A DNA stretch of 64,000 nt, taken from positions 448 to 64,447 of the forward strand of contig JAZSHI010000024.1 in the NCBI GenBank assembly GCA_045533195.1, read 5' to 3'. The notes under the pieces were generated by a model. That model was not told the DNA's origin. It saw only the letters and a program-made list of their open reading frames with translations, and ran no database searches. Below, piece after piece: positions 12,851-54,423 of the stretch. Origin of the DNA: Acutalibacteraceae bacterium (lineage in GTDB: Bacteria > Bacillota > Clostridia > Oscillospirales > Acutalibacteraceae). Made by a program: the position numbers and the translations under genes. Positions within the stretch are counted from its first letter, which is position 1. Every line of letters begins with the position of its first letter.

Positions 12851-13081
12851 ATGAAAACAGAGTTTCCTGAAAAATATATTACTCTTGGATTAAAGATTGC
12901 ATATTATAGAAGGAAATCGGGCTTCACCCAAGAATATTTCGCAGAACTCATCGGTAAAAGTTTAAGTTTTGTAGGTCAGGTCGAGGGTACAGGTACAGTT
13001 CGCGGCGTTTCTTTGGAAACTTTATTCAAAATTGCGCAGGTACTAAAAGTATCCCCCTCCAAATTGCTCGAAGAAGATTAA
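12851..13081 (+). CDS. XRE-family helix-turn-helix protein
   Basis: 76 aa with the HTH_3-like segment GFTQEYFAELIGKSLSFVGQVE. Divergent from SLOG paralogue 1. Confidence 0.75.
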   Translation: MKTEFPEKYITLGLKIAYYRRKSGFTQEYFAELIGKSLSFVGQVEGTGTVRGVSLETLFKIAQVLKVSPSKLLEED

Positions 13082-13094
13082 GCTGTATATAACA

Positions 13095-13140
13095 AAAAGC
13101 CATTTACACTCGGTTTCAAGTGTAAATGGCTTAGTGATTT
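13095..13140 (+). terminator. rho-independent terminator
   Basis: 12-bp stem GCCATTTACACT / AGTGTAAATGGC followed by a T-rich tail. Confidence 0.6.
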
Positions 13141-13278
13141 TTGGAACTTTTACTCTTGCCTTGCCCACTTAAAACCGTCATTTTTTGCACAAAAACATGC
13201 ATTGGCTTAAGTTTGGCTTATGGCTTACGATTTTAGCGGTTAAAAACCTCGAAAAACACAGTGTTTATGCGGTTTTTC

Positions 13279-14784
13279 TCAGTCCAAAGGTTTCATTGTG
13301 GGGAAGAGGATTACTTCTCTGATGGAGTCGGAGTTGGTGAGGAGCATTACGGCTCTATCGATGCCGATGCCCATACCGCCTGTGGGTGGCATACCGTATT
13401 CCATTGCGGTAAGGAAGTCTTCATCCAGCATTTCTGCTTCGTCGTCGCCTCGCTCACGAAGTTCAAGCTGTTTTTCGAAACGCTGACGCTGAACGATAGG
13501 ATCGTTAAGCTCGGAGTAAGCGTTTGCAAGTTCGCTGTGGCAAACAAAGAGTTCGAAACGCTCGGTAAGTCTCGGATCCTCGGGGGATGCCTTAGTAAGC
13601 GGAGAAACCTCAACAGGATACATTGTAATAAAGGTAGGCTGAATAAGTTTTCCCTCGACCTTTTGGTCAAAGCAGGCATAAAGAGCGTTACCCCAAGTTT
13701 TATCTGCAGTCTCGGCAAGTTCTACACCGATAGCCTCTGCCGCTTTAACAGCTTCATTATCATCAGTAATAGCGCCAAAATCAATTCCTGCATATTCCTT
13801 AACAGCATCAACCATAGTAAGTCTGCGCCAACCGGGAGTAAGGTCGATTTTTTCGCCAAGCCATTCTACTTCATAGGTGCCGTGAATTTCTTTTGCGGCG
13901 CCGGAAATAATGCCTTCGGCAATATCCATCATATCGTGGAAATCAGCATAAGCCTGATAAAGCTCAACTGTAGTAAATTCGGGGTTGTGCTTGGGGTCCA
14001 TACCTTCGTTACGGAAAATTCTGCCGATTTCATAAACCCTGTCCATACCGCCTACAATAAGACGCTTTAAGGGAAGCTCGGTAGCAATTCTCATATACAT
14101 CGGTATATTAAGAGTATTGTGATGTGTAACGAAAGGACGTGCAGCCGCACCGCCGACAATGGTATTTAAAACTGGGGTTTCAACCTCAATATAACCCATA
14201 TTGTCAAGGTAGCTTCTCATATATTTAATAAACTGAGAACGAACAACAAAGTTACGCTTAACATCCTCGTTCATAATAAGGTCAACGTAACGCTGACGAA
14301 AACGCAAATCGTAATTGGTAAGACCGTGGAATTTTTCGGGAAGGGGCAAAAGAGATTTTGCTAAAAGCTTAATAGCCTTTGTATGCAAAGAAACCTCGCC
14401 TGTTTTAGTAACGAAGGAGAAGCCCTCAACACCCACAATATCACCGATATCCATTTTCTTAAAGGCGGCATATTCTTCTTCACCAACGTCGTCACGTCTT
14501 ATGTAGCACTGAATTGTGCCTTTTTTATCGGCAATGTGGAAGAAACTTGCCTTACCCATAATACGACGGGACATAATTCTGCCTGCAACGTTATAGGTTT
14601 TTTCTTCGCCTTCGGTATATTCCTCTTTTATATCCTTGGAATTTCCTGTAACCTCATACTTGGTTATTTCGAAAGGATCCTTGCCCTGCTCCTTTAAAGC
14701 AGCAAGTTTTTCGCGGCGAACCTTTAAGATTTCATTTAAATCCTGTTCCACTACTGCCTGATTTTGTACATTATTTTCTGACAT
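13279..14784 (-). CDS. lysS: lysine--tRNA ligase (class II)
   Basis: 501 aa. Shows the OB-fold N-domain and class II motifs (FRNEG, GGMGIGIDR). Confidence 0.95.
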   Translation of the reverse strand: MSENNVQNQAVVEQDLNEILKVRREKLAALKEQGKDPFEITKYEVTGNSKDIKEEYTEGEEKTYNVAGRIMSRRIMGKASFFHIADKKGTIQCYIRRDDVGEEEYAAFKKMDIGDIVGVEGFSFVTKTGEVSLHTKAIKLLAKSLLPLPEKFHGLTNYDLRFRQRYVDLIMNEDVKRNFVVRSQFIKYMRSYLDNMGYIEVETPVLNTIVGGAAARPFVTHHNTLNIPMYMRIATELPLKRLIVGGMDRVYEIGRIFRNEGMDPKHNPEFTTVELYQAYADFHDMMDIAEGIISGAAKEIHGTYEVEWLGEKIDLTPGWRRLTMVDAVKEYAGIDFGAITDDNEAVKAAEAIGVELAETADKTWGNALYACFDQKVEGKLIQPTFITMYPVEVSPLTKASPEDPRLTERFELFVCHSELANAYSELNDPIVQRQRFEKQLELRERGDDEAEMLDEDFLTAMEYGMPPTGGMGIGIDRAVMLLTNSDSIREVILFPTMKPLD

Positions 14785-14798
14785 ATTTATCAGTCCTC

Positions 14799-15272
14799 TT
14801 ATTTAGAAATAGCAACAATTTTAAATTCAATCTCACCGTCGGGAGTTTCTGCCTTAGCGGTTTCGCCAACCTTTTTACCAAGAAGAACCTTTCCTACGGG
14901 AGATTCATCGGAAATAAGTCCGTTACCGGGATCAGCTTCAGCGCTGCCTACCACACGGAATTCCATTTCTTCATCAAATTCAATGTCAAGAACCTTTACT
15001 TTACTGCCGACAGTAACGGTTTTACCTGCGCTCTTCTTTTCGGCAATAAGCTCAACGTTTTTGAGCATTCCTTCAAGCTCTACAATTCTTGCTTCGATTT
15101 TTGCCTGTTCATTTTTTGCTTCATCATATTCGCTGTTTTCGGATAAGTCACCATAACCTCTGGCAACCTTGATTTTTTCAGCAATCTCGGTTCTGCCGGC
15201 GGTTTTTAAGTTTTCGAGCTCATCCTGTAATTTTTTGAGACCTTCCTCGGTAAGTTTAATTGCTTTAGCCAT
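14799..15272 (-). CDS. greA: transcription elongation factor GreA
   Basis: ORF 14799..15281. ATG at 15272 lies 6 nt after GAGGTG. Sequence has [13 protein letters not shown] and [13 protein letters not shown]. Confidence 0.92.
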
Positions 15273-15337
15273 CTTGAACACCTCATAAAAAATTATTTAT
15301 ACATACCAATCTATTATATATAATTATGCACAAAAAG

Positions 15338-16078
15338 TCAATATAATTTATATCCCTCTTTGTAATCGCCGTAAATGGCGCGAACCTCCTCTTCACATTC
15401 GGTAAGAGAAAGAGTAGGCATTATCTTTAGTCCTGCCTTTGAACATTTTTTGCCCTCGATAAGCACAAGAAAGGGCGGCAAGGAAAATCGCTGACAGACA
15501 AATCTTATTCTTTTGGGCTCGATTTTCTTTTCGCTCATTTTACTGAGAATTTCAGTAAGCCTTTCGGGGCGGTGACAGATACAAAGACGTCCTGCAGTAT
15601 TAAGCATTTTAAAGGCGGCATCAATTACGTCATCAATGGTGCAATCTGTTTCGTGACGGGCGGTTGCCTCTATGCTGTCAGGATTTTTTATACCCGTACC
15701 GTCGGCAAAATAGGGCGGATTACAGGTAACAAGGGTAAATTTGCCCGTTTTAAGTTCGGTTGGCAAATCCCTTAAATCAGCAAGTATGGGGGTAAATTTG
15801 TCGGTAAGATTTCTTTCTTTAGCGGTTTTTTCGGCAAGGAAAATTGCTTCCTCGCTTATATCCACACCTACCGCCTTTTCCACCTTTTCATCCCGAAGCA
15901 ACGCAAAGGGTATTATTCCGCAACCGGTACCCAAATCGACAAAGCTGTCCTTTTTCTTTGCATTTGCAAAGTTTGCCAGTAGCAGCGCATCGGTACCGAA
16001 GGCGTGATGCTTTGATACATAAAGGAAAGCCCCTTTTCTGTTTAGGGGCTCCTTTTTTAATTTTATGCTCTGGTCCAT
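15338..16078 (-). CDS. SAM-dependent methyltransferase, tRNA1(Val) m6A37 (YfiC)-like
   Basis: SAM motif DLGTGCGIIP and catalytic CNPPYF. Confidence 0.7.
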   Translation of the reverse strand: MDQSIKLKKEPLNRKGAFLYVSKHHAFGTDALLLANFANAKKKDSFVDLGTGCGIIPFALLRDEKVEKAVGVDISEEAIFLAEKTAKERNLTDKFTPILADLRDLPTELKTGKFTLVTCNPPYFADGTGIKNPDSIEATARHETDCTIDDVIDAAFKMLNTAGRLCICHRPERLTEILSKMSEKKIEPKRIRFVCQRFSLPPFLVLIEGKKCSKAGLKIMPTLSLTECEEEVRAIYGDYKEGYKLY

Positions 16079-17442
16079 TTTACACCCTGTGGAGTATCCT
16101 CTAATATGATACCCATTTCTTTAAGTTTATCACGGATAGCATCTGCTTCTTTGAAATTCTTTTCTTTTCTTGCCTGAGTACGCTTTGCAATAAGCTCTTC
16201 AACCTCGGCATCAAGACTATCGTTTTTACGGTTATAAAGGAAACCTAAAACGCCTGTAAGTTCATCAAAGACCTCTGCCATAGCATTAAGAGATTCTTTT
16301 TTTGCCCCTGCATCAATAGCCATATTAATATCCTTTGCAAGTGTAAATACGGCAGCAAGTGCATCTGCAGTATTAAGGTCATCCTCCATAGCCTCGATAA
16401 ACTCATTTTTATGAAGCTCAACAAATTCGGGTTTCTCGCCGCCGTCCTCTGCGTGAGAAAGGGCAAAATCAATTCTGTCTCTGCAGTTATAAAGACGCTC
16501 AAGAGCGCTCTTTCCCTGTTCGATAATATCAATGGAATAGTTTATGGGGCTTCTGTAATGAGAGGAAATCATAAGATAACGAATAGGCTCATAACCGAAT
16601 TTTTCAGCAACGTCACGAACTGTAAAGAAGTTGCCCAGAGATTTACTCATTTTGCGGTTGTCAACGTTAATAAAGCCGTTGTGCATCCAGAAACGCGCAA
16701 ATTCCTGACCGTTAGCGGCTTCGCTCTGCGCAATTTCGTTTTCGTGATGGGGGAAGATAAGGTCCTGACCGCCGCAATGAATATCTATGGTCTTGCCGAG
16801 ATATCTGCAGGACATAGCGGAACATTCAATGTGCCAACCCGGTCTGCCTTCTCCCCAAGGAGAGTTCCATTTGGGTTCGCCCGGCTTTGCGCCTTTCCAA
16901 AGACAGAAATCCATAGGGTCTTCCTTAATTTCGCCTACGGCAATTCTTGCGCCCGATTCAAGATCCTCAAGAGGCTGATGGGAGAGTTTTCCATACTCCT
17001 TAAACTTTTTGGCTCTGTAATATACGTCACCGCCCGATTCGTAAGCAAAGCCCTTTTCAATAAGGCTTTGGATAATCGAAATTATTTCATCGATATTTTC
17101 GGTGGCTCTGGGATGAACAGTGGCAGGTTTTACATTGAGTCCGTCAGAGTCGGTGCGAAACTCTTTTATGTAGCGTTCTGCTACCTCGGGCACAGTAATG
17201 CCCTCTTCATTTGCCTTTTTAATGAGTTTATCGTCAATATCGGTAAAATTCTGAACGTATTTTACCTTTATTCCGCGCCACTCAAGATAGCGGCGCAAAA
17301 CGTCGAAAACGCAAAGCGGACGGGCATTACCGATATGAATAAAGTTATATACGGTAGGACCGCAAGCGTAAATTTTTACTTCGTTTTCATCAATGGGAAC
17401 AAATTCCTGTTTCTCTCGTGTTAAGGTATTAAATATTTTCAT
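16063..17442 (-). CDS. cysS: cysteine--tRNA ligase
   Basis: HIGN motif (FIHIGNARP) and KMSKS motif present. 459 aa. Confidence 0.95.
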   Translation of the reverse strand: MKIFNTLTREKQEFVPIDENEVKIYACGPTVYNFIHIGNARPLCVFDVLRRYLEWRGIKVKYVQNFTDIDDKLIKKANEEGITVPEVAERYIKEFRTDSDGLNVKPATVHPRATENIDEIISIIQSLIEKGFAYESGGDVYYRAKKFKEYGKLSHQPLEDLESGARIAVGEIKEDPMDFCLWKGAKPGEPKWNSPWGEGRPGWHIECSAMSCRYLGKTIDIHCGGQDLIFPHHENEIAQSEAANGQEFARFWMHNGFINVDNRKMSKSLGNFFTVRDVAEKFGYEPIRYLMISSHYRSPINYSIDIIEQGKSALERLYNCRDRIDFALSHAEDGGEKPEFVELHKNEFIEAMEDDLNTADALAAVFTLAKDINMAIDAGAKKESLNAMAEVFDELTGVLGFLYNRKNDSLDAEVEELIAKRTQARKEKNFKEADAIRDKLKEMGIILEDTPQGVKWTRA

Positions 17443-17444
17443 AA

Positions 17445-18068
17445 CTATCGAATTCCTTTCTCTTCAAGTTCTTTAATACGTTGTTCAAGTCTGCAAATTT
17501 CCTGAGCAACAGGATCGGGAATGTGAATCTGGTCAAGGGGCTGAACCTTTTCGCCGTTACGTCTTACCACCCTTGCAGGAACACCCACAACGGTACAGTC
17601 GGGGGGAACCTCCTCAAGCACAACGGCACCTGCGGCAATTCGTGAATTATCCCCTACTTTAAAGGGGCCAAGCACCTTAGCGCCGGCGCTTATCATAACA
17701 TTGTTTCCAATGGTGGGGTGACGTTTGCCCGTATCCTTACCGGTACCGCCCAAAGTTACGCCCTGATAAATCAGTACGTCGTCGCCTATTTCGGTGGTCT
17801 CACCGATTACTATTCCAACACCGTGGTCAATAACAAGACGTCTGCCTATGGTAGCGCCGGGATGAATTTCTATTCCCGTTTTTCTTACACAGTCCTGAGA
17901 AATCCATCTTGCTATAAACTTAAAACCGTGTTTATAGAAAAAATGTGACCATCGGTGCATACGTATTGCCTTTACACCGGGATAAAGGAAAAATATCTCA
18001 AACCAGCTTCTTGCCGCAGGATCTCTTTCCTTTACCGCGCGAATATCTTCAAATGTTTTTATTAACAA
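17445..18068 (-). CDS. cysE: serine O-acetyltransferase
   Basis: ORF 17445..18182. Likely TTG start at 18068, 8 nt after AAGGAGA. The 38 aa upstream translate the T-box leader. Hexapeptide repeats are present. Confidence 0.85.
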   Translation of the reverse strand: MLIKTFEDIRAVKERDPAARSWFEIFFLYPGVKAIRMHRWSHFFYKHGFKFIARWISQDCVRKTGIEIHPGATIGRRLVIDHGVGIVIGETTEIGDDVLIYQGVTLGGTGKDTGKRHPTIGNNVMISAGAKVLGPFKVGDNSRIAAGAVVLEEVPPDCTVVGVPARVVRRNGEKVQPLDQIHIPDPVAQEICRLEQRIKELEEKGIR

Positions 18069-44583: not shown

Positions 44584-44614
44584 ACACTACCCATGTTTAG
44601 CATAGTATATTGTT

Positions 44615-44652
44615 AAAGGCATCACTTCTCTTTTTGATGTGATGCCTTTTTT
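44615..44652 (+). terminator. rho-independent terminator
   Basis: 11-bp stem AAAGGCATCAC / GTGATGCCTTT followed by a T-run. Confidence 0.75.
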
Positions 44653-44730
44653 AATATACTTTTATTTTTCGGTTGCTGTCTATCGGTAACACAAAATCAG
44701 GGTGCTGATTACCGTGCTGAAAAGATTTGT

Positions 44731-44952
44731 TTATGCTTTCATTATACTCATGAAAATCCCAAAAACAATGGTTACAACAATAATAATCAGACACAGCTTT
44801 GCAATTTTTAGCAAAAAAGCAATACCCATTATCCAGGATAAAAGCAACGCTCCTATGGCAAGTATTGCACAGCCAAGAACGATTTTTCCCGTTGCGCACT
44901 TTGCCCAAAGGATTATCAGACCTGCTATAACCAATAAAATCACCCAAAACAT
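44731..44952 (-). CDS. small hydrophobic membrane protein
   Basis: 73 aa with three predicted TM segments. AAGGGGA RBS upstream. Confidence 0.5.
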   Translation of the reverse strand: MFWVILLVIAGLIILWAKCATGKIVLGCAILAIGALLLSWIMGIAFLLKIAKLCLIIIVVTIVFGIFMSIMKA

Positions 44953-44993: not shown

Positions 44994-45041
44994 AAAAAAA
45001 TCCTCCTACAAGTGTATATGTTGATTTTACACTTATAGGAG
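44994..45041 (-). terminator. strong rho-independent terminator ending the WYL-led operon
   Basis: 16-bp stem TCCTCCTATAAGTGTA / TACACTTGTAGGAGGA with one mismatch, then T7 on the minus strand. Confidence 0.85.
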
Positions 45042-45096
45042 GACAAAGGTATGTCTGCCTTAATTATTTAGTTGTCGGCATATTTAATGATTAAAA

Positions 45097-45255
45097 TTAT
45101 TTATTTTCAATTTTCCCCAAGCCGTCGCATTTTGGGCAGTCGATTACCCCATCACCGTGACAATAGTCACATTCTTCTCCGTCTTCATATCCGAAGCCGT
45201 CACAATGAGGACAATCTAATTCACCGCTGCCGCCGCATTTTGAACAATCAACCAT
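45097..45255 (-). CDS. 52-aa DnaJ-type zinc-finger mini-protein, (CxxCxGxG)x4 (not in ORF track)
   Basis: My translation is MVDCSKCGGSGELDCPHCDGFGYEDGEECDYCHGDGVIDCPKCDGLGKIENK. AAGGAG RBS lies 7 nt upstream of the ATG. Confidence 0.8.
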   Translation of the reverse strand: MVDCSKCGGSGELDCPHCDGFGYEDGEECDYCHGDGVIDCPKCDGLGKIENK

Positions 45256-45275
45256 TTTGTGACTCCTTTATAAAA

Positions 45276-45449
45276 TTAATATTTTCTGTTTATAACCCAA
45301 GAATGCGGTTGAGGTCTGCCCAATTTGTTTTTAGGTCTGCGAGAACAACTGCCGGGTTGAGGTCTTCCGAAGTTACTGAGCTGTGTGCTTCTGGCTCCAC
45401 ACCATCTGCACATATACTCAACCTTCATAATCTTTTTTCCTGTAGGCAT
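45276..45449 (-). CDS. 57-aa basic CxxC mini-protein with duplicated GRPQP motif
   Basis: ORF 45276..45458. GAAAGGA abuts the first ATG and is better spaced (9 nt) for the ATG at 45449. Contains CRWCG, FGRPQPGSC and LGRPQPHSW. Confidence 0.6.
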   Translation of the reverse strand: MPTGKKIMKVEYMCRWCGARSTQLSNFGRPQPGSCSRRPKNKLGRPQPHSWVINRKY

Positions 45450-45492
45450 TAAAACCATTCCTTTCTGTTAATATTTTATTGCTTTTTAATTT

Positions 45493-48174
45493 TTAAATAA
45501 GTAAATCTGCAATTATTTTTTCTGCTGATAAGTCGGTTAGTTGTACTTTGTCAACAAATTCTGCAATACCCGAAATTTCACCTACGCAATATTTATATTG
45601 ATGACTTACTGTAAATTCGTTTTCCAAATTAAGCTTAATCTTTATGTTTGATTCAACCGATACCTTTTCGGGAGTTTCCAGCAGCGAACTCACAAGGGCT
45701 TTATCCATCTGTGTTTCAATAGTTTTCTGTCCTAAATTTAAGCTGATTTTCCCTTTTGTCTCGTCATACTCTCCGTAGCTTATTGCGTTTACGGGGATTT
45801 CGAACAGATTAATTAAAGATTCCTTGTTAATTTGTTTTAAGGCTTCGATTTTTTTCTCTATTTCCTTGGCGAGTAAGAAACTTTCCTCAACCTGTTTTTC
45901 TTTTTCTTTCTTCATAGTATCTGCTGTTTCATTTGCAAATTCGCATACATCAGAAACAGCTTTTTTAAACTCCGAAACACCATTTTTTGCCTTTTTCTCG
46001 AAATGCTCGGGAACATCACGAAGGAACTCGTTCATAGTTTCCGACGCTGAAAGAATACATTCGCACCTTTTTGCACACTCTGCATCAATTTTCTGCAGTA
46101 TGTCGGGAAGTCTTTCTTCCAATTCCTTTGCAAAAACAAGTTGCTTTTCTTTTTTATCATTTAATAGAGCAGTAACATTATCAAATAAGTTTTGGTCTAA
46201 TAACGTGGCAAAAAGCAGAGCGCATCTCTCATACAGATTTTTTACTGCAATTTCTTTTGCAATATCCTCATAAACATTCTGAGTCTCACATATTTTCTTG
46301 CTTTCTTTTTCTACATCATATACAATTTCCAATTTTTCGTTAATGATAAGACTGTTTTGGGTGTTATTATAAAACTTAAATATAAATTCTTTGAAGGCAT
46401 CGTAATCCAACTGCATTGCTGCAAGAAAAACCGCGCCAAAACCGTCGGAAGTTAAAGAATTAAAACAGTCATTTTTGTTTTTTAAGGTTTCTAAAACAGG
46501 GATACTTGTAAATCTTGCGGCGATTAACGGAAGATTTAAGCCGTCTGCATCTATGAATTCTGCGTATTGGTTACTCTGGGTAACCTCTTTAGTATCACCG
46601 TTGATTGCGTAGGTCTTAAGCAATGAGGAAATGGCATTAATCATCCGGTTGTACTCTTCTTCAAGGTGTTCTATGCTACTGCTTACCTCATCAGAATTTT
46701 TATACTTTTCCTCGTCTTTTTTAAGAGAATCCAGCAAAGAACGGCTTTCTATATACTTGAATTCCAAAAGAGCAAGATTGATTTCTGCACAGCGAACATC
46801 AAAGGAGTCCTTGACTTTTTTAGCATCTTCAATTAATTTATGCGCTGTATCGAATTTACCTACTTGCATATAATATACAGCTTTACTGTAGAGATGTAAG
46901 CAATATTCGTCAAGATGCTCATTTTTGTGTTTTTCCACCGTATCCTTCAAGCAATAGCCTAAGGCTTCATCACTTGCAATTTTTGTGTAAAATTGGCTAA
47001 GCTCATAAATTTGACTGTATTCGTATTGCTTAAGCAAAAGCTCAACGAGAATTTTAAACGCCTCTGTTTTTTCTTTTACGAGCTCATCAGGAGCGCCGGA
47101 AATGGCGGCATTTACTGTGTCAGACGCACTTTCTAAAGAGTCATGCTTCTCAAACATTTTCGCCATATTTATGCTTTTTTCAATCCATTCTCTTTGTTCC
47201 TTCAAATAACGCTGATATAGAGTTTCTCTTAGTTTTTCAACAGTTTTCAACCGATTTTCTTTTTCAGAAGAACTAATTAGGTTATGCTCATATAATTCGT
47301 CTATGGTTGCTTTGGCTAAATCAGGCTTCTCGGCTTTCAGCTCAATCTCAAGCTTTAAATTGTAATATTCTTCTTTTACGTCATCTGAAAAATCATCTCT
47401 TATTTCCTGATTTTGCAGTAAACCAAGAGCACCCTTTAAATTGCTTTCTTTTTCAGCCTTTCTCGCCTTTTCAACGGCTGCTTTTAAATCAGCAAGGTCT
47501 TTTGCATAGGTTTCACGGAAATTTGATATAGCTTCTTTTGCAGTCTCGATAAATTCCTTTGCATTGTCGAAGGAAGCGTAAGAAGCTTCATACATATTTA
47601 AAAGCTCCTCTGCTTTATCCATATTTTCAAGATATATGTAGGCTTGAATATAAAGAGCGCGGTAAACCATTAAATCTTCAAAAGAGGTATTCCTTTCGTA
47701 TCGCTTTTGTTTATCCAGTAATTCAAGGTAATTCTCAATATCGCTTTCGTTTGAAAGTGCTTCTCGGAGTTTATTTATGTCGATAGGATCACCAAGTTTA
47801 TGCAAATTATATATTAATTTACCCACACCTATTGCGTAGTTCGGAGATTTTCCGTTGACTGTAACGTTATCACCCTTTAAAGACACGTTGCTTTTTAAAA
47901 GTTGGTCATAGGTTATACTCTCAATCACTCCAAATGACCGCCCGTATATTTTCTTGTCTGTAAAACAGGTGCCATCTTTTGCAGAGCCAAAAAGGGTAGA
48001 GTCATACAAAGCATACACCGTTTCTGTATTGGGAATATTCATATAATATTTGGCGTTTTGCAGTTTCTTTTCGGGGATTGTATTAAAATAATAGCTTATA
48101 CCGCTATACTCTTTGAGCACTTGTTTAACATCATCAATCATAGTGCCTGTTGATTGTTTATTTGTTTCAGACAT
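45493..48174 (-). CDS. 893-aa protein: putative N-terminal membrane-proximal module plus long helical/TPR-like region, no enzymatic motif seen
   Basis: AAGGAGGG RBS 5 nt upstream. N-terminal IPEKKLQNAKYYM...VYALYDSTLFGSAKDGTCFTDKKIY. The remainder is rich in K, E and L. Confidence 0.85.
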   Translation of the reverse strand: MSETNKQSTGTMIDDVKQVLKEYSGISYYFNTIPEKKLQNAKYYMNIPNTETVYALYDSTLFGSAKDGTCFTDKKIYGRSFGVIESITYDQLLKSNVSLKGDNVTVNGKSPNYAIGVGKLIYNLHKLGDPIDINKLREALSNESDIENYLELLDKQKRYERNTSFEDLMVYRALYIQAYIYLENMDKAEELLNMYEASYASFDNAKEFIETAKEAISNFRETYAKDLADLKAAVEKARKAEKESNLKGALGLLQNQEIRDDFSDDVKEEYYNLKLEIELKAEKPDLAKATIDELYEHNLISSSEKENRLKTVEKLRETLYQRYLKEQREWIEKSINMAKMFEKHDSLESASDTVNAAISGAPDELVKEKTEAFKILVELLLKQYEYSQIYELSQFYTKIASDEALGYCLKDTVEKHKNEHLDEYCLHLYSKAVYYMQVGKFDTAHKLIEDAKKVKDSFDVRCAEINLALLEFKYIESRSLLDSLKKDEEKYKNSDEVSSSIEHLEEEYNRMINAISSLLKTYAINGDTKEVTQSNQYAEFIDADGLNLPLIAARFTSIPVLETLKNKNDCFNSLTSDGFGAVFLAAMQLDYDAFKEFIFKFYNNTQNSLIINEKLEIVYDVEKESKKICETQNVYEDIAKEIAVKNLYERCALLFATLLDQNLFDNVTALLNDKKEKQLVFAKELEERLPDILQKIDAECAKRCECILSASETMNEFLRDVPEHFEKKAKNGVSEFKKAVSDVCEFANETADTMKKEKEKQVEESFLLAKEIEKKIEALKQINKESLINLFEIPVNAISYGEYDETKGKISLNLGQKTIETQMDKALVSSLLETPEKVSVESNIKIKLNLENEFTVSHQYKYCVGEISGIAEFVDKVQLTDLSAEKIIADLLI

Positions 48175-48185
48175 TTTTACCCTCC

Positions 48186-49184
48186 TTACACAGCCTCTAG
48201 ACGTGCAATATACTCTTGTCCGCGCATAAGACTTTCCATAGATTTTTCTTCCAATTCGCCTTCCTCATTAAGAAGGGATGTATCTATTATGGCTTTTATG
48301 GTAATTGCAAGTTGAACACAAGCGTAAATGGATTTCCTTTCTTCATCACTATATTTGCTGTAATCCTCGCCGGATGTATTGATAATATCACACATATTAT
48401 TAACAGCGCATACAAAGAATTGATTCAGTATTTGTAAAATTCCGTTTAACTGACTTGCTCTTACCATTATTCCGTTAAGCACAATGCAGGTACTAAGCAC
48501 TTGCTCGTTAAGTGTCTGCGCCCGTAAATATTCGGATTCGGCATCATTAAATTTTTTCTTTGCCTGACTAGCAAAAATAGAGCCTGCAAGAGAAATTACC
48601 GAACCAACATTTAATCCTTTAAGCACCGCGGCTCCGCCTGCCATACCCAAACCTCCGGCAGCCTTTGCGCCTCCGCCCAATAAAGCTAATGCGTGTTTAG
48701 ATGCCGCCGCACCGGCTAAGCCGCTATGGGTAACGGTACGCAAAACAACGGCTTGTGTACCTTTTGAAACGAGACTTCCGATAGCAATTGAAGCGGCTCC
48801 GCCCATTGCGAGATCTTTTGCTGCAATGGCGGCTTCTTTTATTTCAAGAATTTCTTGTTTGTGTTCGGTGAAATGTTTTAATTCATTAATTCCTTCGGTT
48901 TCCTTGAAATTGACATTTTTGATTCTTTCAAAATTGGTCACAAAATCACTCATACTTTCTGCAAGTATATGGATTTTGGTGTCGGCAAACTTTTCCAGCC
49001 TGTCCATTGCTCTGTTATTGGCATTTTCCATATTTTGTTTTGCGGTATCAGAAAGCTGTTCTGCCTGATTTTTTAGCTCTTTGGCAGTTGAAAGATCGTT
49101 AGCTCCGTCAACACCCTTCTTGACACCATGGGCAGCAGAAGCAATTGATATTGCGCCGAGTATTAATGGAATAAATATTGGCAT
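48186..49184 (-). CDS. 332-aa helical protein with N-terminal hydrophobic helix and central Gly/Ala-rich amphipathic segments
   Basis: AAGGGGG RBS. N-terminus MPIFIPLILGAISIASAAHG. Central AMGGAASIAIGSLV...GLAGAAASKHALALLGGGAKAAGGLGMAGGAAVLKGLNVGSVISLAGSIFA. Confidence 0.85.
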   Translation of the reverse strand: MPIFIPLILGAISIASAAHGVKKGVDGANDLSTAKELKNQAEQLSDTAKQNMENANNRAMDRLEKFADTKIHILAESMSDFVTNFERIKNVNFKETEGINELKHFTEHKQEILEIKEAAIAAKDLAMGGAASIAIGSLVSKGTQAVVLRTVTHSGLAGAAASKHALALLGGGAKAAGGLGMAGGAAVLKGLNVGSVISLAGSIFASQAKKKFNDAESEYLRAQTLNEQVLSTCIVLNGIMVRASQLNGILQILNQFFVCAVNNMCDIINTSGEDYSKYSDEERKSIYACVQLAITIKAIIDTSLLNEEGELEEKSMESLMRGQEYIARLEAV

Positions 49185-49199
49185 AATATAACCCCCTTA

Positions 49200-50549
49200 T
49201 TAAAATTCTAATACTAAAGAATCGTCCATCATAAATTCGTCGAATTCTTCAAAGTTTTTAAACTGAATGGTTCCTCCAACTTCAGCGGTTATGGTATTTA
49301 ATGCCGAAGTTAATAAATCTATATTATTGGTATCTAAGGCTGTTGCTAAGGAAATAAGACTTTCTTTGAAAACCTTTTGACGTTTTTCCGACTCAATAAA
49401 GGTGCTGTTAAGAAGAAATTCTCTTTCCTCTTTTATAACATTTATAGCCTCTTGAGAGAGAACTCTGATTTCATTCAGACGTTGGGATGAGACCATTTCC
49501 TCCTCAAAAACATTCATAGCATACTTATATAATTCGCTGTAAACTGCTGTTACGATTGTGGAAGATGCCGCTTGCGTTAAAGCCGCCGCTACCCCCTTCA
49601 TACCCATTGAAAGAGAAATAGACGTACCGATGGAAGTACCCCACGCCTGTGACACCTGAAACAAACCGTCCTGTCCGATTTTAAGGAAAAACTGTGTATC
49701 TGTGATTTCACCGTTAATATATTCTTTAAAATGCTCCTTGACGTTTTCTGCCGTTGCTGTCAGCTCATTTAAGTCAAGATATTTTGAAATTTTCAGCTTT
49801 TCGCAGGCTTTGACTATGTAGTCATTAATTGCTTCTTTAGATAATTCACCGACTTTTTGAGTGGCTGCCTCGGTTAAAGACATTTCTCCGTTAATTAAAT
49901 TTTTGGCAGTATCAATAGCCTCGCCTGAAATACCGAATTTTTCGGTTGCTTTTGAAACAACACCGTCAATAGCCTTATGCTTTATTTCGTCCACCGTTTC
50001 AGTAACAGAATTTTCGATTATCTCTTGAGCAGACATACTTCCGTCTAAAAAACCGTGTAGATTTTCAATTCCCTTGTTTAAAAGCGTTTGTGTCGAATCG
50101 GTTGCAAATAAATCCGCCTTTTTAACGGCATCAGTCTTATATTTTTTACTTTCAAGTTTTTTGTGTTTTTGTGCGAAAGAGTCGGAAACATTTTTCTGTA
50201 TTCTGTCGCACAACATTTCCGGTAAAACTTCTTTGGTTTTTGACAGCACTGCGTTTTTTGAAATTTCTAATGCTTCACTTATATTTGCATCTTCATTCTC
50301 AATACCTTCCAGTCCGCTTGAAAGACCTGCATATACAATAGAGTATATACCGCTTTTTATATCTGAGGATTTACTGTTTTCTTGGTTACTGTTAAATGTA
50401 TCATAAAGTTCGTCAACCTTTTGGTGTACTGCGGATGCAGTCGCTTCCTTTAAGGATGATTTTTCTTCAACCATTTGGGCGCCGCCGTTTATTAATACAC
50501 AAATAACCTCGGATAAAGCATCTGTATCTATTTTTGAATTAATTTTCAT
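49200..50549 (-). CDS. 449-aa helical protein with one Gly/Ser/Ala-rich hydrophobic hairpin
   Basis: GAGGTGA RBS. Hairpin region AWGTSIGTSISLSMGMKGVAAALTQAASSTIVTAVY is flanked by long predicted helices. Confidence 0.85.
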   Translation of the reverse strand: MKINSKIDTDALSEVICVLINGGAQMVEEKSSLKEATASAVHQKVDELYDTFNSNQENSKSSDIKSGIYSIVYAGLSSGLEGIENEDANISEALEISKNAVLSKTKEVLPEMLCDRIQKNVSDSFAQKHKKLESKKYKTDAVKKADLFATDSTQTLLNKGIENLHGFLDGSMSAQEIIENSVTETVDEIKHKAIDGVVSKATEKFGISGEAIDTAKNLINGEMSLTEAATQKVGELSKEAINDYIVKACEKLKISKYLDLNELTATAENVKEHFKEYINGEITDTQFFLKIGQDGLFQVSQAWGTSIGTSISLSMGMKGVAAALTQAASSTIVTAVYSELYKYAMNVFEEEMVSSQRLNEIRVLSQEAINVIKEEREFLLNSTFIESEKRQKVFKESLISLATALDTNNIDLLTSALNTITAEVGGTIQFKNFEEFDEFMMDDSLVLEF

Positions 50550-50577
50550 ATAATCACCTCGTGTTTTTGAAAGAATA

Positions 50578-51552
50578 TTACTGATTTGAATAATTATTTA
50601 TAATCTTTTCTGCTTCCTGACGAATGCTTTGAGCAAATTCCTTTGGGCTTATTACCGTTACCCATGCGCCCTGACTTAAAATCCACATTTTAATGCCGTC
50701 GCCATAGGTTTCGGCTTCTATTAAGTATTTGTTTGCTCCTGTTCGTTCAATGACTTTGGCGGTGGGAAGCTTATCGAGAACTGCCTGAACCGACGGGCCG
50801 GAAAATTCAAATCTTATTTTACGAAGTTTGCCGGGCCACATAAAGAGACTTCTTTTGCGAAGTAATCCTTCGTCGAAGTCGCGGAAATCATCATCGCAAA
50901 ATTTCTTTCGGTGTTCGATTATATTCTTTATTCTGTCAAGGCGGAAATAATACGGTTTTTCCGTATTGCCCTCACACACAAAGGCGATTAAGTAAAAATA
51001 ATAATCGGTGAACATAACCGAGGCAGGCCGCAGACGGTGTGTAACCCATTTCCTATCCATTCGGTAGTATTCAATTGATATTTCCTTTTTCTCGGTAATG
51101 CAATTAGTAATCTGCCATAGTCTATCCTGCACACTTGCACAATCGTGCTTAACCTCGGGGTAGTGATACAGCTCTTTTCGGATAAGCTCTGCAAGATTTG
51201 TCTTATTGTCACCCGTAGTAAAGCGCTTGAGCTTATTGATAAGCGTTAAAAGCTCATCCCTTGAAAAAGCGCGCGCCCCTATTATAACCTCCACAAGAGC
51301 AAAAAGCTCTTTATTGCTTAAAAATTCATCCATAAAAAGATGATAACATTTATTTTTATGTGAGTATTCCAACTCTGTGTTACCCACAAGTTCACGATTA
51401 TCAGAGAGAAACGCCTTTAAATCGGCAATGTTTCGGCTAACGCTTTTGGTAGATACGCCGTATTCGTCAGCGAGTTTCGAGACCGATATGTCTTCACCTC
51501 GAAGAGCACGGAAGAAAATCTCCAAAATTCTGTACTGCTTTGTGTTTTCCAT
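50578..51552 (-). CDS. HTH-WYL-WCX transcriptional regulator (BrxR/CapW/PafBC-like architecture)
   Basis: ORF 50578..51585, likely ATG at 51552. N-terminal HTH (YRILEIFF...VSKLADEYGVSTKSVSRNI) and WYL-like core ISIEYYRMDRKWVTHRLRPASVMFTDYYFYLIAF. Confidence 0.8.
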   Translation of the reverse strand: MENTKQYRILEIFFRALRGEDISVSKLADEYGVSTKSVSRNIADLKAFLSDNRELVGNTELEYSHKNKCYHLFMDEFLSNKELFALVEVIIGARAFSRDELLTLINKLKRFTTGDNKTNLAELIRKELYHYPEVKHDCASVQDRLWQITNCITEKKEISIEYYRMDRKWVTHRLRPASVMFTDYYFYLIAFVCEGNTEKPYYFRLDRIKNIIEHRKKFCDDDFRDFDEGLLRKRSLFMWPGKLRKIRFEFSGPSVQAVLDKLPTAKVIERTGANKYLIEAETYGDGIKMWILSQGAWVTVISPKEFAQSIRQEAEKIINNYSNQ

Positions 51553-51600
51553 TTTTTTAATCCGCCTTTGTAACTTTAAAATCATTTTATAAAATTACTC

Positions 51601-51616
51601 GGACATACTGTTGTCC
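51601..51616. promoter_or_regulatory. palindrome GGACA-N6-TGTCC between the leader terminator and the WYL-gene RBS
   Basis: Perfect 5-bp arms. The same GGACA/TGTCC pentamers form the outer ends of the leader hairpin (51695..51803). Confidence 0.4.
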
Positions 51617-51629
51617 CATAAAAAAACTA

Positions 51630-51663
51630 AAATAAAAAATGCGCAGCCGAAGAGGCTACGCAC
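51630..51663 (-). terminator. intrinsic terminator inside the 5' leader of the WYL-led operon
   Basis: Minus-strand GCGTAGCC-TCTTC-GGCTGCGC followed by ATTTTTTATTTT. Confidence 0.7.
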
Positions 51664-51806
51664 GAAAATCATACCCTCTGCTGTTTAAGGTTGCTGGACA
51701 CTTAAATTAAACTTTGTTGCAAAGTCAGCCAGCGGGTATGGTTTTACCATAACCGGTTTTGCAACAAAAGATTAAAATAAACCGATTTTAACTTAAATGT
51801 CCAACA
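51664..51806 (-). ncRNA. candidate structured leader RNA (three-tier ~110-nt hairpin)
   Basis: Arms 51790..51803 and 51695..51708 (GGACATTTAAGTT / AATTTAAGTGTCC). Inner arms TTGTTGCAAA / TTTGCAACAA. Apex GGTTATGG-TAAAA-CCATACC. Confidence 0.45.
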
Positions 51807-51811
51807 TAGTG

Positions 51812-51840
51812 ATTATAACATAAACACTTTTATTTGTAAA
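51812..51840 (-). promoter_or_regulatory. sigma-A type promoter (TTTACA-N17-TATAAT)
   Basis: Minus-strand hexamers at 51835..51840 and 51812..51817. The predicted start site falls at the 5' arm of the leader hairpin. Confidence 0.65.
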
Positions 51841-53922: not shown

Positions 53923-54423
53923 TTAGTGATATTTGTAGGGATCAGTGTGAGTATTTTCCCCTACAAAATTTATTATATTTTTGTTATTCTCCATTGCATA
54001 TTTGACCGTTTTATATGCTCCGCCGTGGTTGTGTTCAATATACGAGATAATAAGGTCGGCTCTATCTACCATTTCGCGATTTCGGATTTGTATGGCTGAT
54101 TTGGGGTGCGAATAAGATGCGCTATAGGAAATTTCAACTTCGCTGTAATATTCTTCGAAATATTTTTTATTGTTATTATATTCGGCAGTTAAATAGGGCA
54201 AAACAAGAATTAAAGAGCTGTTATCATCTCTATAGGTTTTTCTGACTTTGCGAATAACAGAGGAAACAATTTTATCAAATTCGCCGTTACGTCCTACCAG
54301 AAAATCCACATATTCCTTTTCATCAATGAGCTTTTTTATTTTTTCTTCCAGTAATTCCTCTATCCTTAAAGGATTTTCTATATATCTGTGACCGAAAAAA
54401 GCAACCGTGAAAATATTTAGCAT
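53923..54423 (-). CDS. SLOG / DUF1273-like protein (paralogue 2)
   Basis: N-terminal VAFFGHRYI motif. Same size and layout as 12226..12711. Confidence 0.6.
   Translation of the reverse strand: MLNIFTVAFFGHRYIENPLRIEELLEEKIKKLIDEKEYVDFLVGRNGEFDKIVSSVIRKVRKTYRDDNSSLILVLPYLTAEYNNNKKYFEEYYSEVEISYSASYSHPKSAIQIRNREMVDRADLIISYIEHNHGGAYKTVKYAMENNKNIINFVGENTHTDPYKYH

Follow-up and report, generated by a model that had tools for sequence, protein, structure and literature searches.

What does a regulated operon do when nothing in its cargo resembles an enzyme? The window analysed here, a 64-kb stretch of DNA, contains six minus-strand genes headed by a WYL-type regulator, together with a promoter, a structured leader and a terminator. 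WYL control, as exerted by BrxR and CapW, is typical of toxic defence cargo. The initial annotation saw in this operon an undescribed conflict or defence system built on membrane-active helical proteins without enzymatic domains. While the defence assignment gained support, since one of its proteins proved homologous to the pore-former DinC of the validated Dionysus system, the locus is not undescribed: its core, the proteins p449 and p332, corresponds to the PADLOC candidate system PDC-M09 and to DinA and DinC of Dionysus. On balance, we favour placing the locus within this wider Dionysus (DinABC)/PDC-M09 anti-phage family, as a divergent member that lacks TerB, and we extend the same guarded preference to the mechanism proposed below.

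Dionysus is a validated anti-phage system of P. aeruginosa that requires all three of its genes, dinA, dinB and dinC (bioRxiv 10.1101/2025.09.30.679545). DinC is an alpha-helical pore-former, described by the authors as ClyA/Hbl-like and predicted by AlphaFold 3 co-folding to bind the DinA C-terminus, while a conserved His in the N-terminal "MAEBL-like" domain of DinA matters for defence (bioRxiv 10.1101/2025.09.30.679545). PDC-M09 (A and B) is an unpublished PADLOC candidate system with a two-gene definition.

Operon architecture and a seventh conserved gene

All six previously annotated open reading frames were found, and all features described here lie on the minus strand. From the regulator gene to the last mini-protein gene the intergenic gaps measure 28, 15, 11, 43 and 20 nt, in line with the earlier estimate of about 11-43 nt. 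Two of the six frames could be extended to an upstream ATG, yet we kept the original starts because they are favoured by Shine-Dalgarno spacing and by the N-termini of homologues. The 16-bp-stem terminator claimed downstream was confirmed by direct reading (44994..45043; one G-U among the 16 bp, 11-nt loop, T7); our terminator scanner had missed it, as the loop exceeds its 8-nt limit. Beyond this terminator lies a further gene that the initial annotation lacked (44731..44952). Its product p73 is a small, very hydrophobic membrane protein of 73 aa (hydropathy peak of 3.0 across the whole protein) that matches no family in Pfam, NCBIfam, PADLOC or PHROGs and shares 71% identity with an ORF at the same position in the related locus L083. 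Being conserved downstream of the operon, p73 is probably its seventh component.

A structured leader precedes the regulator gene

The anticipated promoter (51812..51840; TTTACA-N17-TATAAT, its -10 extended by a TG) is the sole 11/12 match across the 7.5 kb scanned, and its -35, -10 and spacing are kept in four related loci (L083, L086, L087, L089). It is followed by a long RNA hairpin of ~115 nt with an 18-bp outer and an 11-bp inner stem (51692..51806). The leader was rightly called structured: the whole 184 nt (51808-51625, terminator hairpin included) folds at -65.6 kcal/mol (z = -7.3 vs shuffles). No Rfam family matches this RNA, whose nucleotide identity to relatives is 81-89%, while the encoded proteins are only 37-83% identical; the stem survives through one compensatory pair along with several swaps between G-U and G-C. 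Besides, the leader contains a previously unannotated intrinsic terminator upstream of the WYL gene (51629..51663), consisting of a hairpin with a 10-bp GC-rich stem (51663-51639) and a T-run. Its stem is retained with altered bases in relatives, which makes it a candidate attenuator or small-RNA 3' end.

Between this terminator and the ribosome-binding site of the WYL gene, we read a palindrome, GGACA-N6-TGTCC (51601..51616), with half-sites (GGACA...TGTCY) conserved in all relatives; it is a candidate operator to which the WYL protein may bind. The regulator itself (324 aa, 50578..51552; 73-83% identity in relatives) matches Pfam HTH_11, WYL and WCX, each above cut-off, and PADLOC WYL models at 1e-22. 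It resembles BrxR/CapW-type regulators in that its domains run HTH_11-WYL-WCX, it leads a defence operon and a palindrome lies nearby. Here, in contrast, a conserved structured leader of ~180 nt with its own terminator separates promoter and regulator gene, an arrangement that, to our knowledge, has not been described for BrxR or CapW.

The core pair is related to DinC and DinA

Although a PADLOC search had been expected to come back empty, p332 (332 aa, 48186..49184) matches PDC-M09A at 2.7e-15. It also aligns with P. aeruginosa DioC over residues 1-311 of its 332 (BLASTP 2e-20, 30% identity), and its family profile retrieves DioC in hhalign (probability 100, E 1e-64). Judged by these comparisons, p332 is a full-length DinC homologue and a DinC-type helical protein. 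A hydrophobic helix lies at its N-terminus and a glycine-zipper region at its centre, and its AlphaFold model predicts a helical bundle with long hairpins around a low-confidence Gly-rich centre. The glycine-zipper core (residues 126-208, 48561..48809; pLDDT < 50, moderate hydropathy of 1.2-1.5) holds most of the family-invariant columns, including G170-G172, G177, G178, G180 and G184, and is presumably the membrane-inserting element.

The p332 model resembles no solved pore-forming toxin significantly (Foldseek best E 0.07), an observation that counts against our preferred explanation. ClyA and AhlC do appear among the matches of highest probability (0.66-0.75), in keeping with the published ClyA/Hbl-like description of DinC. 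These matches, and the hydrophobic head that each of the two helical proteins has, would also suit a toxin exported to attack other cells, namely a two-component alpha-pore-former of the ClyA, Hbl or XaxAB type. We consider this very improbable: the E-values of those matches are 0.16 or worse, the operon sequences as read reveal no signal peptide or secretion gene, control lies with a cytoplasmic WYL regulator, homologues are located in defence and mobile islands, and the homologue DinC works inside the cell.

The adjacent gene encodes p449 (449 aa, 49200..50549), which comprises a lineage-specific helical N-terminus (~1-207) and a conserved DinA/PDC-M09B module (~208-449). It is similar to its homologue in locus L005 (BLASTP 8e-29) and to residues 408-573 of the DinA orthologue of L060 (7e-12); L060 is itself a genuine Dionysus locus, with a DinA of 60% identity and a DinB match at 3e-49. 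In hhalign comparisons, the p449 subfamily aligns with the DinA family over residues 208-449 (probability 99.8, E 6e-29) and the DinA family profile in turn with DioA (probability 100, E 4e-55). By these alignments p449 carries the DinA C-terminal module, sharing only the last ~240 residues of DinA; hhalign found its N-terminus unrelated to that of DinA or to TerB. No family in Pfam, NCBIfam, PADLOC or PHROGs matches p449. PADLOC PDC-M09B is matched by 20/36 family members, whereas p449 is too divergent for this model; that it is missed by both the PDC-M09B and the BnzB models weighs against our explanation, as does its lack of the "MAEBL-like" domain. Within the module, a Gly/Ala/Ser-rich, weakly hydrophobic hairpin (residues 296-345, 49515..49664) aligns with the family hairpin "PIPVVGxxIGxxxGY". 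Its Kyte-Doolittle peak of only 1.2 would suit an amphitropic segment better than one that is constitutively in the membrane.

A scaffold and two mini-proteins without enzymatic signatures

Downstream of the core pair, p893 (893 aa, 45493..48174) has an AlphaFold model with a mean pLDDT of 83.7, which divides into a PH-like domain (residues 12-130), TPR-like helical repeats (133-525), an ankyrin-like region (540-632, so labelled from a sequence motif by eye only), a long coiled coil (636-791) and a beta-sandwich (798-878). Foldseek matched the model to TPR scaffolds only among PDB entries, and p893 is a candidate scaffold or sensor without an enzyme-like fold. Full-length members are few, with 10 proteins found among 5.8 billion and 11 cluster representatives at E <= 1e-30. 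Its N-terminal domain, on the other hand, is widespread, with profile matches to 1526 representatives at E <= 0.001; among the matches listed below the full-length family, almost all cover this domain alone, and a multi-copy carrier of it matches the PH-like Pfam families Vps36 GLUE and PH_TFIIH.

The zinc-ribbon-like mini-protein p57 (45276..45449; CxxC...C...H) contains an internal GRPQP duplication, the repeat being family D5. It matches no family in Pfam, NCBIfam, PADLOC or PHROGs; homologues of 86-89 aa with a "YQCRYCxYKS...CPRHP...PHSW" motif occupy the same position in L083, L085 and L086. The four CxxCxGxG motifs of p52 (45097..45255) resemble the DnaJ cysteine-rich domain or anti-TRAP, with matches to Pfam DnaJ_CXXCXGXG (2.3e-5) and NCBIfam RtpA (4e-8) that both fall under the curated cut-offs; in relatives, a different protein, an 83-aa tandem zinc-ribbon, takes its place.

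The early impression that the cargo lacks enzyme motifs was borne out: none of the five proteins matched an enzymatic family in Pfam, NCBIfam, PADLOC or PHROGs, PDB sequence searches with p449, p332 and p893 gave nothing significant, and Foldseek matched the models of p332 and p893 to no enzyme fold.

Conservation, mobility and related systems

A conserved gene set and homologues in defence islands, which the initial annotation proposed to look for, were both found. The DinA-like/DinC-like pair recurs in 74/81 fetched loci from many phyla. Its usual companions are a TerB protein (DinB), a CxxCxxCC protein or both, and a WYL regulator is sometimes present; the two genes lie side by side here and in almost all relatives. 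The order WYL-p449-p332-p893-zinc ribbons is maintained in L083-L090. Leader, WYL regulator and p332 are most conserved, p449 is intermediate and p893 diverges fastest (37-48% identity), a gradient that fits fast-evolving sensors.

Close relatives carry the same operon between different flanks, one of them within a mobile element that also has AIPR, TIR and restriction-modification genes; L089 neighbours Mob_Pre, AIPR, DpnII, TIR and methyltransferases, and L001 an integrase and a type I-E CRISPR-Cas system. In the present genome the neighbours are, as first annotated, the housekeeping genes MatE and PEPCK and no defence island, which speaks against our explanation. The foreign origin suspected from GC content found little support: the shift is small (37.2% in the operon vs 39.7% in the window; 2-kb windows, sd 2.8%), and although cargo GC3 is 0.32-0.33 vs ~0.40 for most genes, genes at 57-64 kb have values just as low. 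The differing flanks in relatives are better evidence of mobility.

With Dionysus, the locus shares the adjacent DinC- and DinA-related genes and a small zinc-binding ORF further downstream, here after p893. Unlike Dionysus, it is headed by a WYL regulator and leader RNA, adds the PH-TPR-ankyrin scaffold, two zinc-finger mini-proteins and p73, and occurs in a low-GC anaerobe of Gram-positive type, not in a Gamma- or Betaproteobacterium. The window encodes neither a TerB nor a CxxCxxCC protein nor the DinA N-terminal domain; the missing TerB counts against our reading, as DinB is essential in Dionysus. The extra genes are likewise outside the PDC-M09 definition. The Bunzi system, reportedly described by Millman and colleagues in 2022, consists of the TerB protein BnzA and BnzB. 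Within the present family, a DinC/PDC-M09A gene is in some loci partnered by one for a BnzB-like protein (up to 6e-45), others encode BnzA-like TerB proteins (4.9e-10), and both systems are thought to be membrane-associated, but no protein of the window matches BnzA or BnzB.

Eleos (LeoA/LeoBC, dynamin-like), two-protein and membrane-directed as well, raises another reading, namely that the pair represents GTPase-less relatives of a bacterial dynamin-like stalk and paddle, which would stabilise or reseal membranes when envelope or DNA damage causes stress and would not be specific to phages. Consistent with this, p332 weakly matches the middle and membrane-binding region of LeoBC (PADLOC model positions 367-524, 2.4e-5), its L005 homologue scores 1.2e-4, a few DinA-family members match LeoB, LeoBC or LeoA, relatives include TerB partners with a link to membrane stress, and the flanks here are housekeeping genes. 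We nevertheless deem it improbable, given that a GTPase domain is absent, that the family profile retrieves no dynamin among PDB sequences and Foldseek of the p332 model neither BDLP1 nor LeoA, that Gly/Ala-rich composition may underlie the weak HMM matches, and that the homologous Dionysus is a proven defence system.

Proposed mechanism

Under our favoured reading as a Dionysus-related system, two gates would control expression. Transcripts from the promoter would enter the conserved leader; since this ends in a terminator, read-through would be needed for operon expression. The HTH-WYL-WCX protein would then probably occupy the palindrome just ahead of the WYL gene and come off when released by a ligand. 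Once made, p449 and p332 may form a latent, soluble or peripheral complex. Sensing or licensing might fall to lineage-specific parts, i.e. the p449 N-terminus, the p893 scaffold and the zinc-finger mini-proteins, which would stand in for what is supplied elsewhere by TerB (DinB), the CxxCxxCC protein and the N-terminal domain of DinA. When infection is sensed, the DinC-like p332 would insert into a membrane and perforate it.

Which membrane this would be is where abortive infection enters, in which the two Gly-rich helical proteins, once derepressed, make the cytoplasmic membrane of the host permeable and kill or arrest the infected cell. Many alpha-helical pore effectors of CBASS, Pycsar and retron systems work in this way (summarised in bioRxiv 10.1101/2025.09.30.679545), and the enzyme-free, membrane-active proteins and the WYL control of this operon would suit such a role. 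For the sole characterised relative, however, infected cells survive and take up no propidium iodide, which indicates that DinC spares the host membrane, and the proposed target is the early-infection vesicle of jumbo phages (bioRxiv 10.1101/2025.09.30.679545). Both p332 and p449 also have only weak hydrophobic segments. Such permeabilisation, suggested by the initial annotation, thus appears rather unlikely, albeit the most serious competitor. In its favour, no phage vesicle that could serve as target is known for this host. Dionysus is known to act only on jumbo phages that form a nucleus, and such phages are not known for Clostridia of this kind, which weighs against our own explanation. 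For the Dionysus-like mechanism, the target could be a phage-made compartment, by analogy with Dionysus, or, in a Gram-positive host, may be the cell membrane. Either way, what sets this locus apart within the family is that its Dionysus-related core pair is combined with other likely sensors and regulators.

Results

ORF calling on the window confirmed the positions that the initial annotation had assigned to the six minus-strand genes (within 44994-51840). They are separated by gaps of 28, 15, 11, 43 and 20 nt and encode a 324-aa WYL regulator followed by p449, p332, p893, p57 and p52 (window proteins are named by their length in aa). We compared the window proteins and family profiles with the sequences of the Pseudomonas aeruginosa anti-phage system Dionysus (DioA, DioB and DioC, the P. 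aeruginosa versions of DinA, DinB and DinC; Table S1 of bioRxiv 10.1101/2025.09.30.679545). Dionysus is described as consisting of DinA, with a "MAEBL-like" domain and a transmembrane domain, the TerB protein DinB, and the alpha-pore-former DinC, which has four transmembrane segments and resembles pore-formers of the ClyA/Hbl/Nhe type; AlphaFold 3 predicts binding of DinC to the DinA C-terminus, and the reported range of the system is Gamma- and Betaproteobacteria (bioRxiv 10.1101/2025.09.30.679545).

On sequence grounds, p332 is a DinC homologue. It aligned with DioC over residues 1-311 of 332 (BLASTP 2e-20, 30% identity), the p332-family profile matched DioC at an hhalign probability of 100 (E 1e-64), and p332 agrees with the description of DinC as an alpha-pore-former-like protein of ~340 aa with an "MPxPLI" helix at the N-terminus and a Gly-rich membrane region at its centre. 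Across the family, the glycine-rich core "ATNATLAWxGGGSLAAGGxGMAGG" is invariant, and p332 itself matched two PADLOC models for component A of the candidate system PDC-M09 (PDLC04407 at 2.7e-15, PDLC04406 at 8e-14). PDC-x entries are unpublished PADLOC candidates (PMC11811056), and a literature search for "PDC-M09" found nothing. Searches by tblastn revealed no phage homologue of p332 and, among the replicons of a plasmid collection, merely two weak partial matches; by exact look-up, neither the p332 of the window nor its C. grantii homologue was on record. The idea that p332 and p449 are paralogues was rejected, as hhalign finds no relationship between them.

A structural model of p332 (mean pLDDT 65.7) gave only long-helix matches in Foldseek, including ClyA (2wcd; E 0.16, probability 0.66), 6mrt (probability 0.75) and AhlC (probability 0.63-0.69), none of which was significant. 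Alpha-pore-forming toxins of the ClyA/Hbl/Nhe type are elongated bundles of helices that bear a hydrophobic head. Single-sequence searches of PDB sequences with p332, p449 and p893 found no relative, and PDB profile searches with the alignments of the p332 family (A1) and the DinA-like p449 family (A3) yielded nothing meaningful. These data bear on the possibility of a dynamin-like membrane repair function, whose sole basis are weak Leo HMM matches (PADLOC LeoBC on p332 residues 35-219, 2.4e-5). Structure and profile searches did not confirm these matches: no dynamin appeared among the PDB profile-search results or the top Foldseek matches of p332. Besides a stalk and a hydrophobic paddle, Eleos and bacterial dynamin-like proteins have a dynamin-type GTPase domain, which is absent here, with no GTPase or P-loop family found in any operon protein by Pfam, NCBIfam or PADLOC. 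We therefore consider such a repair function improbable.

The gene for p449 lies 15 nt upstream of that for p332. hhalign placed the p449 subfamily with the DinA family at a probability of 99.8 (E 6e-29) over p449 residues 208-449, and the p449-family profile matched DioA at a probability of 100 (E 4e-55). By BLASTP, p449 aligned with residues 408-573 of the DinA from a Billgrantia locus, L060 (7e-12), and it matched its homologue in locus L005 at 8e-29. The homology is confined to the C-terminal part of p449 (about residues 208-449), the transmembrane and predicted DinC-binding module that in Dionysus, too, is encoded beside DinC. Residues 1-207, in contrast, did not resemble the N-terminus of the DinA family (hhalign probability 2.2) and had no TerB match, and the motifs "QQAGFSAE" and "RTDD" are absent; p449 thus lacks the "MAEBL-like" domain with its functionally important histidine. 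The protein did not match the PDC-M09B HMM at E <= 1, but is nonetheless homologous to proteins that do, and neither p449 nor p893 matched Pfam, NCBIfam, PADLOC or PHROGs.

Word-indexed search retrieved 149 p332-family proteins, in which Pfam recognized no domain save for one partial match (P0088). A genome scan with one genome per species gave at least 218 encoding loci, of which 80 were kept; the surveyed loci stem from Bacillota, Pseudomonadota, Bacteroidota, Actinomycetota, Campylobacterota, Spirochaetota, Planctomycetota and other phyla. After ORF calling in the loci and clustering of neighbours, 74 of 81 loci were found to have a p449 homologue beside that of p332, at least 48 of 82 encoded a TerB-domain protein, WYL regulators occurred in 17 surveyed loci, and none of those kept showed p893, p57 or p52. 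Besides, 31 of 82 loci encode a YkgJ-type CxxCxxCC protein (PF03692), usually just downstream of the DinC homologue (e.g. L005 11022-11285, L060 11083-11379). Since the P. aeruginosa Dionysus cluster table also lists a 70-aa zinc-ribbon ORF directly after DioC (bioRxiv 10.1101/2025.09.30.679545), a small partner that binds zinc or iron seems to recur beyond the three genes by which Dionysus is described.

Members of the p449 family share a C-terminal module (a Gly-rich hairpin, a coiled coil and a terminal "QFxNFxEFDxxM" motif) and differ in their N-termini, which mostly carry a "QQAGFSAE" domain and in some cases an M48 peptidase (L026 6872-9205, L041 6722-9121), an LRAT/NlpC domain (LRAT in one A3 member) or a BnzB-like region (L045 207-1730). 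PADLOC assigned 20 of 36 members to PDC-M09B, labelled some as BnzB of the Bunzi defence system (6e-45) and labelled some of the TerB partners as BnzA. The DinA/DinC pair is the same entity as PDC-M09 and is tied to Bunzi by shared BnzB-like and TerB modules; the swappable N-terminal or middle domains on the conserved C-terminal module of the DinA/PDC-M09B family make Dionysus, PDC-M09 and Bunzi members of a single modular family. The Billgrantia locus, whose DinA is 60% identical to DioA and whose DinB matches DioB at 3e-49, proved to be a genuine Dionysus locus in conjunction with the profile comparisons, and by such similarities the cassette found so widely belongs to Dionysus or to a wider Dionysus family.

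The window departs from this pattern. DinB/TerB, essential in P. aeruginosa, is absent: the six-frame translation contained nothing that matched the TerB HMM or DinB at E <= 10 and no CxxCxxCC ORF either, and Pfam TerB was in no operon protein. No window protein matched the Bunzi components BnzA (TerB) and BnzB, whereas other loci of the family do. Because TerB/DinB and the DinA N-domain were both tested for and are both absent, the locus should not be filed as canonical Dionysus. The Juk system, considered for its TerB and WYL associations, was dropped, its paper showing just loose neighbourhood links.

In place of these proteins, the operon encodes p893 and two mini-proteins. The good structural model of p893 (mean pLDDT 83.7) predicts a PH-like beta-sandwich (residues 12-130), TPR-like repeats (133-525), two very long helices (636-791) and a C-terminal beta domain; an ankyrin-like motif in a poorly modelled stretch comes from sequence reading only. 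Foldseek matched the model to generic TPR scaffolds only, and to no enzyme. Full-length members of the family are few (word search found 10 proteins, and an exhaustive search 11 cluster representatives at E <= 1e-30). By contrast, the N-terminal domain of p893 (~100 residues) is widespread: the profile matched 1526 representative proteins at E <= 0.001, nearly all of the matches listed beneath the full-length family covering this domain alone, and one protein carrying multiple copies matches the PH-like Pfam families Vps36 GLUE and PH_TFIIH. In L007, L012 and L056, which among the Bacillales loci are closest to the window, the C-terminal domain of the CxxCxxCC protein has a motif resembling the p893 N-terminus, a marginal similarity (hhalign E 0.12, HMM E 0.01) suggestive of a relationship between the two. 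Of the mini-proteins, p52 has four CxxCxGxG motifs and resembles the DnaJ cysteine-rich domain or anti-TRAP, with scores under the curated cut-offs, and p57 is zinc-ribbon-like (CxxC...C...H) and matched no family. Within the p57 gene, a 20-nt direct repeat (85% identical, 48 nt apart; 45307-45374) encodes a duplicated "GRPQP" peptide.

The operon ends at a terminator with a 16-bp stem followed by T7 (45043-44994, minus strand). Just past it, on the same strand, lies a wholly hydrophobic 73-aa ORF (p73; 44731-44952). L083, the only relative examined downstream of the operon, has a 71% identical ORF in this position; p73 is probably a seventh component that the initial annotation missed. Between p73 and the converging MatE gene, an inverted repeat (44604-44660; 25-nt arms, 84% complementary, 7-nt spacer) is likely a bidirectional terminator.

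Upstream, the promoter TTTACA-N17-TATAAT with an upstream TG (51840-51812, minus strand) was the sole site to match at 11/12 within the 7.5 kb that was scanned; promoter-like sites altogether were no more numerous in this region than in shuffled sequence, so the argument for the promoter is carried by position and conservation. It precedes a leader RNA (51625-51808, minus strand; z = -7.3 for its fold) that comprises a ~115-nt hairpin and an intrinsic terminator (51663-51639 plus a T-run, minus strand), the latter unmentioned in the initial annotation. Counterparts in close relatives (L083 1599-1784, L086 173-356, L087 3150-3333, L089 4077-4260) are 81-89% identical to the window in nucleotide sequence, compared with merely 37-83% for the proteins of the same loci. 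In an alignment of five sequences, four of them distinct, covariation support was modest: one compensatory pair (G-C to A-U, columns 10/117) and several G-U/G-C swaps preserve pairing in the hairpin, and the terminator stem is preserved despite altered bases. No Rfam family matched the leader, a pattern scan of metagenomes gave 120 chance matches of which none fitted the leader profile, and no comparable conserved structure was found upstream of WYL genes in more distant loci; among the searches made, the leader thus occurs in the clade of the window only. By eye, its loop "CAUACCC" is complementary to "GGGUAUG" between hairpin and terminator, which suggests a pseudoknot or alternative pairing.

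The leader terminator is followed by a 16-bp palindrome (GGACAACAGTATGTCC; 51616-51601, minus strand), which precedes the WYL ribosome-binding site. Its half-sites, GGACA-N6-TGTCY, are conserved in all relatives and form a candidate operator for the WYL regulator, which has the N-terminal HTH, central WYL and C-terminal WCX domains of its class (HTH_11 25.9 bits, cut-off 25; WYL 34 bits, 21.8; WCX 26.6 bits, 23.9). The words GGACA and TGTCC recur at the base of the long leader hairpin. Downstream of the leader terminator, neither a scan nor inspection by eye found another sigma-70 promoter ahead of the WYL gene, and expression of the operon therefore probably requires read-through of this terminator.

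Gene order (WYL, p449, p332, p893, zinc ribbons) is conserved across the close relatives L083-L090. Identity to the window is 73-83% for the WYL regulator, 66-83% for p332, 47-59% for p449, 42-48% for the zinc-ribbon protein p57 and 37-48% for p893; this gradient, headed by the leader, may reflect recognition parts that evolve fast alongside a switch and an effector that stay stable. In the window, the operon is flanked by genes for a MatE transporter and PEP carboxykinase within wider housekeeping flanks and is only slightly GC-poor; att-like direct repeats were not found around it. A 166-aa ORF beside the PEP carboxykinase gene (53923-54423, minus strand) had no Pfam match at 1e-5. In L089, the operon is on a mobilisable element with Mob_Pre, IstB(-like) and Phage_rep_org_N genes upstream, and immediately downstream (12969-17633) are genes for AIPR, an N6/N4 methyltransferase, a DpnII endonuclease, a TIR-domain protein and a D12 methyltransferase; these genes on both sides make up a compact mobile defence island. 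The L083 operon follows a transposase and precedes an AAA_15 ATPase, that of L087 adjoins ABC transporters, and the proteobacterial cassette L001 lies between an integrase and a type I-E CRISPR-Cas system. The differing positions of the relatives, including the defence genes of L089, support mobility and an association with defence genes.

Discussion

The initial annotation had proposed an undescribed, membrane-targeting defence operon. Its reading as a membrane-directed defence system stands, but "undescribed" does not, as p332 is a DinC homologue and the C-terminal module of p449 is that of DinA. We favour, with moderate confidence, a Dionysus-family system in which the DinA-C/DinC-like pair p449 and p332 would perforate a membrane. 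As substitutes for the DinA N-domain, TerB and CxxCxxCC proteins, p893, the zinc-finger proteins, the N-terminal part of p449 and possibly p73 would do the sensing or licensing, and the WYL regulator and leader would control expression.

The main rival of this model is the abortive infection of the initial annotation, in which the host membrane would be permeabilised. In P. aeruginosa, protection against phiKZ-like jumbo phages needs all three Dionysus genes, and infected cells survive and exclude propidium iodide, while early-infection vesicles do not appear (bioRxiv 10.1101/2025.09.30.679545). By analogy, the Dionysus data favour a phage-made compartment as the target and argue against host killing. 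Phage-made compartments of that sort are not known in this kind of host. On balance, host-membrane abortive infection seems rather unlikely to us, and that the operon specifies an exported toxin highly implausible.

Within the Dionysus-family model, DinC-type pore-formers could be a portable effector that is re-wired to differing sensors. Here, the TerB/DinA-N layer would have been replaced by the PH-TPR-ankyrin-coiled-coil scaffold p893, zinc-finger mini-proteins and a small membrane protein, and an undescribed, highly conserved leader RNA or attenuator would act with a WYL repressor as a two-tier switch. We put this forward tentatively; if true, a Gram-positive, TerB-independent Dionysus-like system must act on a target other than the jumbo-phage early-infection vesicle.

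The survey extends the range of the DinA/DinC pair far past the reported Gamma- and Betaproteobacteria, e.g. to Bacillota, Bacteroidota and Actinomycetota. The conserved leader RNA ahead of the WYL regulator represents an undescribed and separately testable regulatory element. Furthermore, the operon would be a case in nature where the layer that senses infection has been exchanged while the DinC effector was kept, with TerB and the DinA N-domain, essential in P. aeruginosa, replaced by other proteins. Comparing such variants could reveal what licenses the DinC pore-former, and which membrane it attacks in hosts without nucleus-forming phages.
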